The translations under genes and the position numbers were made by a program. Below are positions 30,112 to 35,165 of a stretch of 47,623 bases of DNA, piece after piece. The notes under the pieces are model-generated. The model searched no databases. It saw only the letters and a list, made by a program, of their open reading frames with translations, and was not told the origin of the DNA. Within the stretch, counting starts at the first letter, position 1, and each line of letters begins with the position of its first letter. The stretch comes from Escherichia phage TanjaMuster_Bas81. The stretch lies in the sequence record PQ850630.1. The stretch is one strand, 5' to 3'.

Positions 30112-30574
30112 TGAAGAATTTGCGCAGTTAATGTTTGGTAAGCCATACAAGGACAGGTGCTGCCATGTTGATGCCGTTGATTGCTGGGGGTTGGTGGTGC
30201 TTTATTACCGCCTGTGTCGTGGCATCAATATTCATCATGACGACAGTTATGATAATGGCGGATCTTTTGTTACCTGCTTCGATAGTGAGGTGACATTCTG
30301 GCAGGATACGCAATCACCGGCAACAGGAGATGTTGTCGTGGCATATCGCGGCAACGTTCCTGTGCACATCGCCATGGTATGGGGCCGTGATAGAATACTT
30401 CATGCGAGAGAGAAAACGGCAGTCAGATTTGACAGGCTGCGAACACTCGAAAAAATATCAACAAAGTTAAGGTTCCTCACCTATGCCAGTAATTCATGTT
30501 CAGAAGATGCCGGGCACGCCGAAAGAAACGGGAATTGTGCCAGCTGGCACAAACCTGTGGAAGTGGCTGAATAA
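30104..30574 (+). CDS. tail assembly protein with NlpC/P60-like fold (gpK-like)
   Basis: track ORF trimmed to ATG 30104; conserved Cys (VDCWGLV) and His (PVHIAMVWG) consistent with C40/NlpC-P60 catalytic pair. Confidence 0.5.
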
Positions 30575-32969
30575 ATCAAATCTTCCTGCCAGCATTTCAA
30601 TTGCGGTAAATGGCAGAGTGCTTGGTGAAGATGATGAGCTTTCTTTCTGTCTGCGCGATGGCGACGTGGTCAACGTTTATTGTCAGCCATCAGGCGCAAT
30701 CGGCGACCTTATCGGCTCTATACTGAAGCCAGTAATGAAGATTTTCTCGTTTCTTACACCGAAGGTATCGACACCAAAAACTGACACCAACTCGAAAACA
30801 TCACCGAATACCAGCCTTAAGGCGCAAACCAATATTGCGCGAAATGGTGAGGCGCGACCTGATAACTTCGGGCAGGTTCGCGCATTCCCTGATTTGCTTC
30901 AGGAATCATTATTTGAATACATCAACAATATTAAATATGTCACAGAGTTCATGAACTTTGGCCTCGGTAAATATGATGTATCATCCGTGCGTTACTCGGA
31001 ATCAAACCTCGGTTCACTGGCTGGCGCGAGTTACACCATTTATCAGCCGGGAGAGGTTATTCCGGTTGTGTATGAACCTTACGCGTTTGATGATGTTGAC
31101 GGGCAGGAACTGTACGGGCCAAACGAACTGGATACCAACCCTCCTCCAGTAGTTATTGAAACTGCAACAACTACCACGGTCACGGAAACAGAATTTGCTG
31201 GAGGTCAGATTGCCGTCAAGATACCAAAGGATTCGGCATTTGATTACTTCGTTGACTTAACCATGCCTCATGATGTGGTGTTTAAGCTGAATATCACTTA
31301 CGCGCAGGGAGGCGGCGCATCTGTAACTGAAAACGTCACGCTATCAGGAAGACTTGTCTCCGCAACTGAGACTGATGATGGTGGATTGCCGCCAGTAAAC
31401 TACTGGTACACATTTATTATTAACAGCATCAACTACTCAGGCGCACCAATATCATCACTGAATGGCGTGACGATTAATAACACCTATTTCAACCTGACAG
31501 ATAACCAGCCGATTGTTTCCGGCCCGTACTTTTCACCGATTGATGGTGATCAGCTTTGGGTGCACCTGCAACACCAGACCAATGATGGCAATGATTTCAG
31601 TGTGCTCATTGAGTGGTGGAAGATTGACGACGATAACGTTCAGATTCCCGGCACATATCAGTCGATGAACTATTATCAGGACGTAGACCGGAATGACACA
31701 TTCTACTATACGATCAAGTTAACGCCATCTGCTGGCACTGGTCGCTACGCTATTCAGATGCGACGGACAAACAACAGTTCCGACACATCAATTCTTCAGC
31801 TTGAGGAAATACACTCAATCGTCACGCGAACCAACGTCTCGTATCCAGATGATACGGTGGTTAAAGTTATTGTGCGCGCCACCGAGAATGCCACAGGAAG
31901 TCGCGACAGGAAATATAATGCATTAATAACTCGCCATACCATCGGATATAATCGCGACACAGGAACTGTGCGCTACACGCTGGCACCATCCCGTAGCTTT
32001 GCTGATGCTGTGCTGCATAACTGGCTGATTACCGCTGGCAATCCAGAAAACACTATCGACATTGTTAAACTGTATGAGATTGCCGACAGCCTGCCTGATG
32101 AGAGACTGGGCTATTTCGATTACACGTTTGACGATGAGGATAAAAGTATTGGAGAACGCCTGCAGACCATATGCGATGCAGCGCGTGTTACTGCATTCTG
32201 GGATGATGGCGTGATGAGCTTCTCTCGTGATGAAAAGCGAGAATATCCCGCTACTGTATTCAATACCAGAAACACGCAGAGCGACGGCTATAAGCTGAGT
32301 TATGGCATCAGTCTTCCCGGCACTTACGATGGCGTTAACGTCGAATATCGTGACCCAACAACGAACAAGCAAGCCAACGTCTACTATCGAATTACCGATA
32401 GCGGAATAGTCGAAGGCGAACCAACGAAAGCCAAGAAATTCGACATGCTTTATGTTCGCAATCGCCATCAGGCTGTTGACCGGGCAATCCTTGAGTGTCG
32501 TCGCCTGATTTATTCACGTCGTGGCATGGAGATTAAGGCACTGGCAGATGGTGAATGGGTTAACGTAGGTGACATGATTCAGGTCGTCGATATGTATGAT
32601 GACGTTCAACAGACTGGCGTTATTGAAGCGCGTAACGGGAACGTATTCACAACCAGCGAGCAGCTAACGGCTGATGATAATCTTTATGTTGTGATTACTG
32701 GAAGTGATGGAAGAACATCAGAGAGATTAAAAGCAACTGTAACTGGTTTGCATACATTCACCTGCAACCTGCCGTCTGATTTCGAGTTGAATATTTGGGA
32801 TGGCACTAATGTGCAATCAGAATCTCGCTATGTGCTGAGCACTGAAAAAGAACTGGATACCACTCTGTGGGTTGTCAGCCAGAAGAATCCGGGAAGTGAC
32901 GGTACAACGACGCTGACGATGAGTGAGTACAGCGATGACATGTACGAATATGCCATCTCGTCATCGTGA
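30483..32969 (+). CDS. tail tip/host specificity protein (lambda gpJ-like central fiber, with gpI-like ubiquitin-fold N-terminus)
   Basis: 828 aa; segments [16 protein letters not shown] and downstream region resemble N-terminal half of lambda J as recalled; first ~90 aa resemble tail assembly protein I. Confidence 0.6.
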
Positions 32970-33008
32970 TACAATATACATCAAATTCACAAAGGAGCAT
33001 TTATTATA

Positions 33009-35165
33009 ATGGCTACCACACCAACCAATAAACCAATTCCGTCAGAATACCCTCGCGACCTGAAATTTAATGCCGGGAAGATTGACGAGGTAGTGACATC
33101 TGATGCGCATTACTACACCGATCGCTTCGGCGTGCGCCGCTGGACAATTGCTGGCTTCCAGCACACCGCAGAAGAAGCCATCCGTAACTATGGCTACATC
33201 ACTATTGACAGCTTCGAAGATGGTGCAACACTGACGCTACCAAATCAGGTTTTGCGTTATGAGGCTACTGGAGAATATTACCGCTGGGATGGAGATTTCC
33301 CAAAAATAGTTCCGGCTGGTTCAACTCCAGATAGCACAGGCGAGGTTAAATTAGGAGCGTGGGTTAGTGTTGGTGATGCTTCATTGAGAAGTGATTTGGC
33401 CCTAACCACAGGCGCAGGTCTAGTTGGTACAACATCCGGCAGGACCGTACAGGCAGAGTTTGATTACCGCAAAACTCAAGCGGAAAAAACAGAGATAAAC
33501 ATACTTGACTACCTTCCGGATAACGTGATCGCGGCGCTAAACGATGTTAATGCATCAATGGCTCTAGGAAGCGTAAGGACATACATCGAACAGGCTTTGG
33601 CGGCAGCAACGAGCGAGAATATCGGTACTGGGGTTACTTTACGTTTCCCGGCTGGGTTCTTTTGGCTTGATTCTACTCTTAACCTTCCTAAAAGGACGCG
33701 TATTGTTGGGGTCTACCCAGAAACATACTTTATGGCGCTCCCCAACTTTACCGGCACTAACGTAATTGCTGGCTCCACGGGACCAGCTATAGTCGCTATT
33801 GATAACTCAGGACAAGACCCGTTTTATATTGAAGGTTTCCAGATAAACGCAGATGGCTCACAACCGAATGTGGTTGGACTGCACATTGGCGGATGCCGTA
33901 ATTCCGTCGTCCGCCGAATATCTGTATCGGGGACCTTCGATGCTGCTGTTGTTATCCACCCTAAAAACGCAACATCTGGAGACGTGGAGAACCTGGAATT
34001 AAGCCACGTATGGACATTAGGTGGTGGGCTTGTGCTCAGGACTAATACAGATATCGACCGTGGAAATTTAACAGGTCTGTCATTCCGGGATTGTATGTTT
34101 TTCAGCACAATCGACAACAACCCTTCATGGGCGACGTCCGGTAACCCATCCATCAGATTCTCATGTCATACTGACAGACAGATTTTTTCATGTACATTCG
34201 ACCGCGTTGGTTGGGCTAGTCGTGCGACATACGCTATTTACTCAGAAAGTCTTGCAGGAAATAGCGAGGCAGATGTAAAAGGTTTCCGTGATATCCATTT
34301 CTCTGATTTCGCCGGAGAATCCCACAACGCTGACGGCTCGCTAACATCAGACTGTACGTATGCCCTACTTACGAAGATGCGGAATAGCACATTTACTAAC
34401 ATCCAACGCTCTGGCGCCGTGACCCGTGGGGGTATCATTATGGATGGGTGCGAATATGTGACCTTCAACTCAGTGTCTTTTGCAGATCCCAATATTAGCA
34501 CTGGAACAACTGCCCCACGGTGCGTATATCAAAACTCTACTAATAGATTTAACCGTTTTATCAATTGTGACTTAACAGATGCTACTGGTAGTATGTTTGA
34601 TTTAGATGGTTGGACCATAGCTAACAGTGTGATGTACTACTTTAAGGGCCTGTTCTGGGATGACAGTGGGACTAGTATCTGGGAATGTGAACAAATGTCT
34701 AGCACTCCTGGCGTTATGTTCGCAAGAAGTACATTAAACCAAAATAACGGGTCGGCCTTCCCTCAACAGTCTGGGGTTACAATGCTAACTTCAGGCGACA
34801 ACCTTCAAGTTACTTTTGCAAGAGACACCACTACTAAAACCTTTACAATACCTATTACTACATCTTCTGGTGTATTTAATAACCATGACAGGGTGTATGT
34901 GGCATTTAGACATCAGTTCCTTAGCTATGGAACCAATACTGTAGTGAAAATAGGGATTGGAGGTAAGTATGTTACAATCAGTCCTCAATCGGGAACTGAT
35001 TATTTTGCGGTGGTTAGTAGAGCACGTTCTTTGGCAACATCATTTGATATCCAAGTCACTTATAGTGGCGCTTCGGGAGATTGCATTATTCTTATTAGAG
35101 ATTTAATTGTATCAAATAAAATGCCGTGGCTCCCTAACTTCACCAAAGTCTTACTTTGCGATTAA
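33009..35165 (+). CDS. tailspike/receptor-binding protein with right-handed beta-helix (putative depolymerase)
   Basis: 718 aa; N-terminal conserved tail-attachment-like domain (GAWVSVGDASLRSDLA); central region with repeated hydrophobic beta-strand pattern typical of pectate-lyase-like beta-helix. Confidence 0.6.
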   Translation: MATTPTNKPIPSEYPRDLKFNAGKIDEVVTSDAHYYTDRFGVRRWTIAGFQHTAEEAIRNYGYITIDSFEDGATLTLPNQVLRYEATGEYYRWDGDFPKIVPAGSTPDSTGEVKLGAWVSVGDASLRSDLALTTGAGLVGTTSGRTVQAEFDYRKTQAEKTEINILDYLPDNVIAALNDVNASMALGSVRTYIEQALAAATSENIGTGVTLRFPAGFFWLDSTLNLPKRTRIVGVYPETYFMALPNFTGTNVIAGSTGPAIVAIDNSGQDPFYIEGFQINADGSQPNVVGLHIGGCRNSVVRRISVSGTFDAAVVIHPKNATSGDVENLELSHVWTLGGGLVLRTNTDIDRGNLTGLSFRDCMFFSTIDNNPSWATSGNPSIRFSCHTDRQIFSCTFDRVGWASRATYAIYSESLAGNSEADVKGFRDIHFSDFAGESHNADGSLTSDCTYALLTKMRNSTFTNIQRSGAVTRGGIIMDGCEYVTFNSVSFADPNISTGTTAPRCVYQNSTNRFNRFINCDLTDATGSMFDLDGWTIANSVMYYFKGLFWDDSGTSIWECEQMSSTPGVMFARSTLNQNNGSAFPQQSGVTMLTSGDNLQVTFARDTTTKTFTIPITTSSGVFNNHDRVYVAFRHQFLSYGTNTVVKIGIGGKYVTISPQSGTDYFAVVSRARSLATSFDIQVTYSGASGDCIILIRDLIVSNKMPWLPNFTKVLLCD

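Follow-up and report, generated by a model that had tools for sequence, protein, structure and literature searches.

A gpI-gpJ hub fusion without a tail fibre and a predicted O16-targeting tailspike at the tail tip of Escherichia phage TanjaMuster_Bas81

How does a siphophage recognise its host when the protein at its tail tip ends before the receptor-binding part of its lambda counterpart? This question is raised by the tail-tip locus of Escherichia phage TanjaMuster_Bas81 (sequence record PQ850630.1), whose whole stretch of 47,623 nucleotides was analysed here and is called the window for simplicity. The plus-strand tail operon ends with two open reading frames (ORFs), one of 828 amino acids (aa; 30483..32969) and one of 718 aa (33009..35165), both starting with ATG and both at the coordinates given in a preliminary description made from the sequence alone. 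That description proposed a fusion of the lambda tail proteins I and J followed by a separate tailspike. Both ORFs are real genes, because they match virion proteins, phrog_469, NF040662 and PF18668. In our view it is highly likely that the tail tip consists of a fusion of gpI with the hub part of gpJ, without a fibre, and of a spike which docks on the distal tail protein (DTP) and serves as the receptor-binding protein, with the O16 O-antigen as its predicted target. The analysis itself yielded the gene structure, the homologies and folds, the conservation of the fusion and the mosaic junction of the spike; papers on close relatives supplied the location in the virion, the stoichiometry, the attachment to the DTP and the dependence on O-antigen.

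The hub protein and its gpI-like N-terminus

In a phmmer search against PDB sequences, the 828-aa protein was about 96% identical, end to end, to gp14 of phage Sf11 (828 aa; PDB 9OCC chain E, labelled "Putative tail protein gp14"), and neighbouring genes of the window matched chains F (gp16), C (gp17) and G (gp13) of the same entry. The gene order of the Sf11 tail tip (Subramanian, Dover and Parent, J Virol 2025, PMC12724387; 9OCC) is that of the window. Sf11 gp14 was described there as "baseplate hub 2 protein" (BH2P), present in three copies and found in virions by mass spectrometry at 92 kDa; its cryo-EM model comprises residues 81-827 only, residues 1-80 being unresolved in the map (PMC12724387). 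The window protein further matched phrog_469 'tail protein' (E 2e-252) and, over aa 356-822, NCBIfam NF040662 ("host specificity factor TipJ family") with 442.6 bits at a cut-off of 140; this family spans lambda J residues 145-590. An AlphaFold2 (AF2) model calculated from 35 homologues (mean pLDDT 76.9) retrieved 9occ_E (95% identity) with Foldseek, as well as lambda gpJ (8xcg_J, E 3e-25, TMt 0.65), and further the hubs of T1 (9l9p_S, E 2e-18), T5 (pb3, 7zhj_b, E 7e-10), DT57C and Chi (8vjh_A). The 828-aa protein is thus baseplate hub protein 2, presumably trimeric as in Sf11, with a gpI-type module and the gpJ hub part (HDII-HDIV) in one chain, and the J-like hub of the preliminary description is borne out by these structural matches. 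T5 pb3 is likewise a single-chain hub that includes the plug, but it lacks an N-terminal ubiquitin-like domain (Ubl) and has two FNIII domains as well as the HDI (gpL) part, whereas HDI is a separate gene in the window.

The protein had been described as about 300 aa shorter than J. The length arithmetic holds (828 versus 1132 aa), but it understates the loss. In Pfam scans lambda J comprises FNIII-A (86-207) and Phage-tail_3 (330-498), followed by the C-terminal domains Ig_J (610-714), Ig_J_second (716-818), Phage_Tail_Tip (845-972) and Ig_GpJ_C (1001-1132). None of these four C-terminal domains was found in the hub with Pfam at E up to 10, in agreement with the earlier proposal that a receptor-binding C-terminus is lacking, and scans of the hub with the limit set first at E 0.01 and later at E 10 returned only sub-threshold ThiS and Phage-tail_3, so that Pfam on its own would have assigned no domain to the protein. 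The registers of both NF040662 and hhalign place the end of the hub at the equivalent of lambda J residue ~590-600; about 535 residues of lambda J (~600-1132) are absent, and with them the FNIII domains, the tip fibre and the LamB-binding domain. The gap in total length is merely 304 aa because the hub carries ~160 extra gpI-like residues at its N-terminus. In contrast to the full-length central tail fibre J of lambda (NF049904, lambda_TipJ), with its FNIII-1/2, tip fibre and LamB-binding domains, the hub has no recognisable receptor-binding domain.

Residues 3-67 of the hub model form a beta-beta-alpha-beta-beta beta-grasp (strands 3-7, 15-18, 38-42 and 62-67, helix 25-31; block-mean pLDDT 71-88), an assignment based on DSSP topology and sequence profiles. 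One short low-confidence helix follows at aa 74-89 and the chain is then disordered to about residue 125. At this place lambda has a Gly/Ala-rich linker of ~60 residues with two predicted transmembrane helices (H1 and H2), as opposed to the single short helix predicted in the window. Pfam ThiS matched the N-terminus weakly (E 0.004, below the cut-off), and some hub homologues are named 'MoaD/ThiS family protein' by NCBI. M1, P2, G11, N43 and D61 are invariant in hub relatives, M1 and P2 down to 48% identity; the beta-grasp ends in a conserved QP-x-G...G motif (Q68, P69 and G74 nearly invariant; QPKGG in many relatives), and a 19-residue motif within aa 75-160 is invariant or nearly so.

A profile of hub residues 1-165 was searched against 1.84 billion cluster representatives (E up to 0.001). 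The search returned 597 proteins, most of them 800-1100 aa long with the module at the N-terminus; 84 of the 111 representatives with a single match were at least 700 aa long and carried the module at residues 1-170. The close homologues listed for the hub measure 708-837 aa. A deep N-terminal profile rebuilt from 90 of these sequences was compared with the gpI family alignment using hhalign and gave E 1e-6 (probability 91%), with hub residues 35-140 collinear with gpI 57-204. Controls with the reversed gpI alignment and 20 column-shuffled ones scored 14.3 at most versus 45.2 for the real comparison. The two halves also matched on their own, the beta-grasp half to gpI 57-96 (E 2.7e-4) and the later half (aa 87-141) to gpI 151-205 (E 1.5e-5), while cross-comparisons of the non-cognate halves gave nothing (E 0.17-0.44). 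The ubiquitin-fold, gpI-like N-terminus proposed earlier therefore stands, on the AF2 beta-grasp, the ThiS match and the hhalign comparison with its clean controls.

In lambda, gpI residues 159-175 are the lumen plug, and strands after the plug augment the hub sheets of gpJ; gpI was modelled only from residue 101 or 135, the N-terminal domain being unresolved (PMC11101478, PMC10721106). The virion maps of lambda gpI and Sf11 gp14 thus both miss the N-terminal Ubl region. By analogy with gpI, we infer that hub residues 75-160 act as lumen plug. The module order (NlpC/P60 K, Ubl, linker, plug, hub) is alike in lambda I/J/K and in the window, except that lambda makes gpI and gpJ as two polypeptides and the window a single one. 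Such fusions are long known: Iyer, Burroughs and Aravind (2006, Genome Biol 7:R60, PMC1779556) defined the N-terminal ThiS/MoaD-like beta-grasp of TAPI with its conserved glycine at the C-terminal end and described TAPI-TAPJ fusions that occur together with a K protein having NlpC/P60 but no JAB domain, an architecture that does not differ from that of the window, which likewise has a JAB-less K. Later structural papers describe hubs made of one to three polypeptides. The Sf11 paper mentions neither ubiquitin nor gpJ (PMC12724387).

Several results weigh against the assignment to gpI and the plug. Pfam Lambda_tail_I (PF06805), which lambda gpI itself matches with 100 bits, was found neither in the hub (aa 1-100 or whole, E up to 10) nor in any of 59 diverse hub relatives, so that the homology to gpI is carried by profile-profile comparison. 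Shallow hhalign comparisons of the 35-sequence alignment with the single lambda I and J sequences were weak (E 0.055 and 0.002; probabilities 1% and 14%), and so was the comparison with an alignment of close gpI homologues (just E 7.5e-4); the match to gpI became convincing only with the profile widened by sequences from the representative search. AF2 confidence is below 50 over hub residues 69-125, and the plug conformation is not predicted.

The absence of PF06805 matches, together with ThiS as the sole Pfam match (E 0.004) and the NCBI names of homologues, would also fit a beta-grasp acquired independently as a ThiS/MoaD-like domain, in which case 'I-J fusion' would be a misnomer. We regard this as improbable: the separate match of aa 87-141 is to the non-Ubl C-terminal module of gpI and is lost in the cross-comparisons, the module order, the place after K and the overlap with K are all as in lambda, and gpI itself belongs to the ThiS/MoaD-like group (PMC1779556). 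Next to nothing speaks for the other conceivable reading, a merger of an I-like and a J-like gene through loss of a stop codon or an error in sequencing, an idea that derives from the separate I and J genes of lambda alone and for which no support was found. Most of the homologues listed, which range down to 54% identity and come from Salmonella, Serratia, Rahnella, Leclercia and E. coli phages and prophages, have a single ORF of ~824-837 aa, the single-match representatives of at least 700 aa carry the module in the same place, the 828-aa chain was deposited for Sf11 and seen in its virions, and TAPI-TAPJ fusions were listed by Iyer et al. Since close and distant homologues keep the fused architecture in a single ORF, a lost stop codon, which the preliminary description had named as a possible refutation, is excluded. 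We therefore retain the fusion of a gpI module with a gpJ hub.

The representative search also contained very long proteins (1100-4600 aa; search entries P0371, P0376, P0421, P0436, P0444, P0448, P0474 and P0498) in which the beta-grasp part (profile positions ~30-80) is matched 7-14 times in tandem; by sequence these proteins look like poly-ubiquitin-like arrays.

The tailspike and its docking on the distal tail protein

The 718-aa protein matches Pfam PF18668 (Tail_spike_N) at aa 66-123 (67.5 bits, cut-off 25, E 1e-18), and its residues 1-152 align with Sf11 gp13 (9OCC chain G; gp13 aa 1-155) at 73% identity, the remainder being unrelated. Residues 125-718 are 98% identical to aa 385-978 of gp4 of Bas96, a tail protein of a G7C-like podophage, with unbroken identity from about residue 135, and the body is ~89% identical to Bas74-76 and related Kagunavirus spikes. 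Judged by these alignments the protein is a mosaic tailspike made of a cluster adaptor and a Bas96-type body, with the junction at a conserved GDASLR motif (aa ~120-135). In every top hit the DNA alignment runs through the hub gene and breaks off after the first ~400-470 nt of the spike gene; in Bas77-80, whose spike body differs from that of the window, it ends at query position ~2981. The adaptor-body pairing of the window had no full-length match in the phage collection, where no record covered at least 80% of the 4.7-kb query. In the Skatevirus isolates Bas77-81 the spike locus likewise lies directly downstream of the J-like hub (PMC11990801).

A first spike alignment mixed unrelated bodies (1240 columns) and was discarded; AF2 was run on a 13-sequence alignment of body homologues. 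Strands dominate the model at aa ~210-530, and most blocks over aa ~160-370 have a mean pLDDT of 84-94. Foldseek matched it with probability 1.00 to CBA120 TSP4 and TSP2, K2-2 TSP, Depo32 and the HK620 and Sf6 tailspikes, and KP32gp38 was also matched; spike homologues at 41-42% identity carry Pfam Beta_helix (PF13229). The spike body is predicted to be a right-handed parallel beta-helix, in keeping with the beta-helix tailspike anticipated downstream of the hub, since the matches are to right-handed beta-helix tailspikes and depolymerases. In relatives the ~150-aa adaptor is joined to many bodies (pectate-lyase-like, Beta_helix, SGNH, sialidase/BNR, Peptidase_S74); the non-beta-helix bodies on the same adaptor include SGNH/GDSL esterases, BNR sialidases, GDPD and endonuclease/exonuclease/phosphatase-family domains. 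These family assignments suggest a wide range of chemistries at the spike locus.

In Sf11, residues 4-59 of three gp13 chains and a single gp17 helix form a helical bundle, salt bridges link gp17 E129, E136, E147 and E152 with gp13 R16 and K19, and six spike trimers sit on the DTP hexamer (PMC12724387). The DTP of the window matches Sf11 gp17 (9OCC chain C, 457 aa) over residues 1-155 (E 7e-101, >93% identity); of the gp17 contact residues it retains E129, E136 and E147, with E152 replaced by D, and the spike retains R16 and K19. The spike adaptor is predicted, by conservation of these contacts and by analogy with Sf11, to dock on the DTP helix and not on the hub. The N-terminal attachment-type domain noted in the preliminary description thus corresponds to PF18668 and the Sf11 gp13 adaptor, and its partner, going by the Sf11 structure (PMC12724387), is the DTP.

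The DTP occurs in two forms that both contain the docking helix. The long form of ~457 aa has a 300-aa C-terminal appendage and is found in Sf11 (gp17, 7881..9254) and Bas80 (3773..5143); the window DTP lacks this appendage. The short 157-aa form, contiguous with the next gene in at least 139 phage records, is the commoner one. A truncation artefact was considered for the 157-aa DTP and rejected, the same junction being contiguous in the 139 records. In Bas80 an endonuclease gene (2766..3641, minus strand in the Bas80 sequence) lies between the tape measure and DTP genes; the window is without it, and its tape measure stop and DTP start both fall on nt 29168.

The receptor of this spike is probably the O16 O-antigen of E. 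coli, because its body shares 98% identity with the spike body of Bas96. Restoration of the O16 O-antigen is an absolute requirement for Bas96, GtrABS glucosylation of O16 blocks Bas74-76, and spikes of the Bas96 gp4 and Bas74-76 type form the O16-targeting clade in the BASEL analysis (PMC11990801). From the same relationship the spike body is predicted to cleave O16 O-antigen. The Sf11 spike has a different body, of Sf6/P22-like type with specificity for the S. flexneri O-antigen, as compared with the Bas96 O16 type of the window.

Host range, opening of the hub and the beta-grasp domain

In the proposed mechanism the hub trimer would close the tail tube and later open it, and receptor recognition would be delegated to the presumably trimeric tailspike. 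By analogy with Sf11, each of the six DTP subunits would contribute its C-terminal helix to a four-helix bundle with the N-terminal helices of a spike, giving six spikes per virion; the spike body would bind and cleave E. coli O16 O-antigen, which would let the fibre-less cone reach the outer membrane. For relatives, O-antigen was reported as the sole receptor, and for the phage group host range was reported to be set by the spike alone, as the preliminary description had predicted (PMC11990801, PMC12724387); Sf11 requires full-length lipopolysaccharide (LPS), and single knockouts of ompA, ompC and ompF were without effect (PMC12724387). No second receptor-binding protein was found in the form of another fibre- or spike-like ORF of at least 180 aa in the window.

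Some observations count against this picture of a spike acting alone on O16. The O16 specificity is carried over from Bas96 by identity, the spike N-terminus is poorly modelled by AF2 (pLDDT <50-55) because the alignment held body homologues, and the docking geometry could differ from that of Sf11 on the short DTP. The porin knockouts of Sf11 were single ones, which leaves room for a redundant secondary receptor (PMC12724387). The hub itself might supply such a contact, binding a secondary outer-membrane receptor or the LPS core through its exposed insertion domains (~aa 200-420) or the cone tip, so that spike and hub would set host range together. According to work cited in PMC12724387, a second receptor is used by P22- and Sf6-type phages, whose spikes are similar; hub aa ~215-470 are the least conserved in the family consensus; and the opening trigger of the fibre-less hub is left open by both papers (PMC11990801, PMC12724387), the first of which flags the coupling of adsorption to DNA ejection as unsolved. 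Nevertheless we consider a receptor contact of the hub rather unlikely, given that Pfam and NCBIfam scans found no receptor-binding domain in it, that Sf11 is unaffected by the single ompA, ompC and ompF knockouts, and that the hub is ~87-90% conserved in DNA across phages of Salmonella, Shigella, E. coli and Klebsiella while the spike body is swapped. Recognition by the spike alone remains the preferred explanation.

The gene before the hub raises a further question on the beta-grasp domain. The K-like protein matches Pfam NLPC_P60 (E 7e-9) and has likely Cys/His catalytic motifs, as read from the sequence (VDCWG, VHIAM, ILHA); in contrast to lambda K, which has a JAB signal in addition to NlpC/P60, it has NlpC/P60 only and no JAB domain. 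Its last 92 nt (30483..30574) overlap the start of the hub gene, the lambda K/I overlap being 103 nt. Between Sf11 and the window the hub-frame peptide of the overlap is identical, all changes being silent, and the K-frame tail differs at several residues; the unchanged hub-frame peptide supports ATG 30483 as the true start of the hub. In the Sf11 record (NC_054636.1, ~6930..7402) the K-like NlpC/P60 gene is unannotated and a 58-aa 'gp15' is annotated on the opposite (minus) strand; translation of this region is near-identical to the K-like protein of the window.

A tentative idea, which we hold to be doubtful at present, is that the Ubl domain (aa 1-74) is a cleavable pro-domain that is cut at QP-x-G(G) during tail-tip assembly by the JAB-less, papain-fold NlpC/P60 peptidase. 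If so, the mature hub would begin near residue 75-81, and the lack of residues 1-80 in the Sf11 map would be accounted for. With Ubl, plug and hub in one chain and cryo-EM available for a close relative, the role of the TAPI Ubl and of gpK, a question of 20 years' standing, could be answered in this phage group. The mechanistic questions raised by the locus are Ubl cleavage and the trigger that opens a fibre-less hub, the latter recognised in the literature.

As a whole, the tail-tip layout is an ordinary Skatevirus/Sf11-like module that is already known: there is little new in it because a solved structure exists for a ~96%-identical hub (9OCC), fusions of I and J alongside a JAB-less K have been on record since 2006, and the layout of a hub with a sole spike is described in the BASEL and Sf11 papers. 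The analysis bears on annotation, in that the 828-aa protein is better named a gpI-gpJ(hub) fusion or baseplate hub protein 2 than "tail fibre", the 157-aa gene is the spike-carrying DTP, and a K-like peptidase gene is to be added in relatives such as Sf11. For host prediction, the spike body points to an E. coli O16 O-antigen receptor, and for engineering, the adaptor/body junction at GDASLR offers a natural splice point for spike retargeting.

Gene layout and neighbouring genes

The window phage is a siphophage of the Skatevirus/Cedarrivervirus cluster, and 29168..35189 is its tail-tip and adsorption module (Table 1). Over the tail-tip region, and likewise over the window's first 25 kb, DNA identity is ~87-91% to a large set of siphophages, 44-48 kb in size, of Salmonella, E. 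coli, Shigella and Klebsiella, among them ASO78B, Bas77-80, Sf11, IME207, LPST10 and Skate. Humolli et al. (PLoS Biol 2025, PMC11990801) assigned the phage set to the Skatevirus cluster; Sf11 is classified as Cedarrivervirus.

Table 1. Features of the tail operon and tail-tip module (window coordinates).
Feature	Position	Strand	Basis or remark
DUF6246 protein	25975..26682	+	235 aa, E 6.5e-74
Tape measure protein (TMP)	26682..29168	+	Tail operon
Distal tail protein (DTP), short form, 157 aa	29168..29641	+	Match to Sf11 gp17 residues 1-155
DTP C-terminal helix, aa ~121-155, predicted docking site of tailspike trimer	29528..29632	+	Sf11 contact residues conserved
Baseplate hub protein 1 (BH1P; gpL-like, hub domain I), 156 aa	29641..30111	+	Match to Sf11 gp16
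gpK-like NlpC/P60 tail assembly peptidase, 156 aa from internal ATG (probable start)	30104..30574	+	Pfam NLPC_P60
Hub aa 1-74, ubiquitin-like beta-grasp (gpI/TAPI N-terminal domain)	30483..30704	+	AF2, ThiS, hhalign
Hub aa 75-160, short hydrophobic helix and gpI C-terminal 'TAPI-C' module (plug, beta-strand)	30705..30962	+	hhalign
Hub aa ~161-828, gpJ-type hub (HDII-HDIV with insertions)	30963..32969	+	NF040662, Foldseek
Tailspike aa 1-134, cluster-specific adaptor (helices aa 4-59; PF18668 aa 66-123)	33009..33410	+	Sf11 gp13, Pfam
Tailspike aa 135-718, right-handed beta-helix body and C-terminal beta-sandwich; predicted O16 O-antigen module	33411..35165	+	Bas96 gp4, AF2, Foldseek
Bidirectional GC-rich hairpin terminator, 8-bp stem, T-runs on both strands	35170..35189	.	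Closes tail operon

The hub gene lies at the end of an operon of the TMP-M-L-K(-I) type, in which the genes for TMP, DTP, BH1P, the K-like protein and the hub follow each other (starts in Table 1), and the terminator behind the spike gene faces convergent minus-strand replication genes. BH1P matches Sf11 gp16 (PDB 9OCC chain F, E 1e-100), phrog_396 minor tail protein and, weakly, Pfam DUF1833. It differs from lambda gpL, which has 232 aa and an Fe-S C-terminal domain, in lacking this domain and in having no Phage_tail_L match.

The DUF6246 gene lies directly upstream of the tape measure gene, nt 26682 being common to its end and the tape measure start. The slot just before the tape measure gene is usually that of a tail assembly chaperone. 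Further away, a 496-aa ORF (14229..15719, plus strand) matches phrog_760 and has no Pfam match. The hypothetical protein gp64, detected in Sf11 virions by mass spectrometry at 52 kDa, is of similar size, and the 496-aa ORF may encode a further virion protein.

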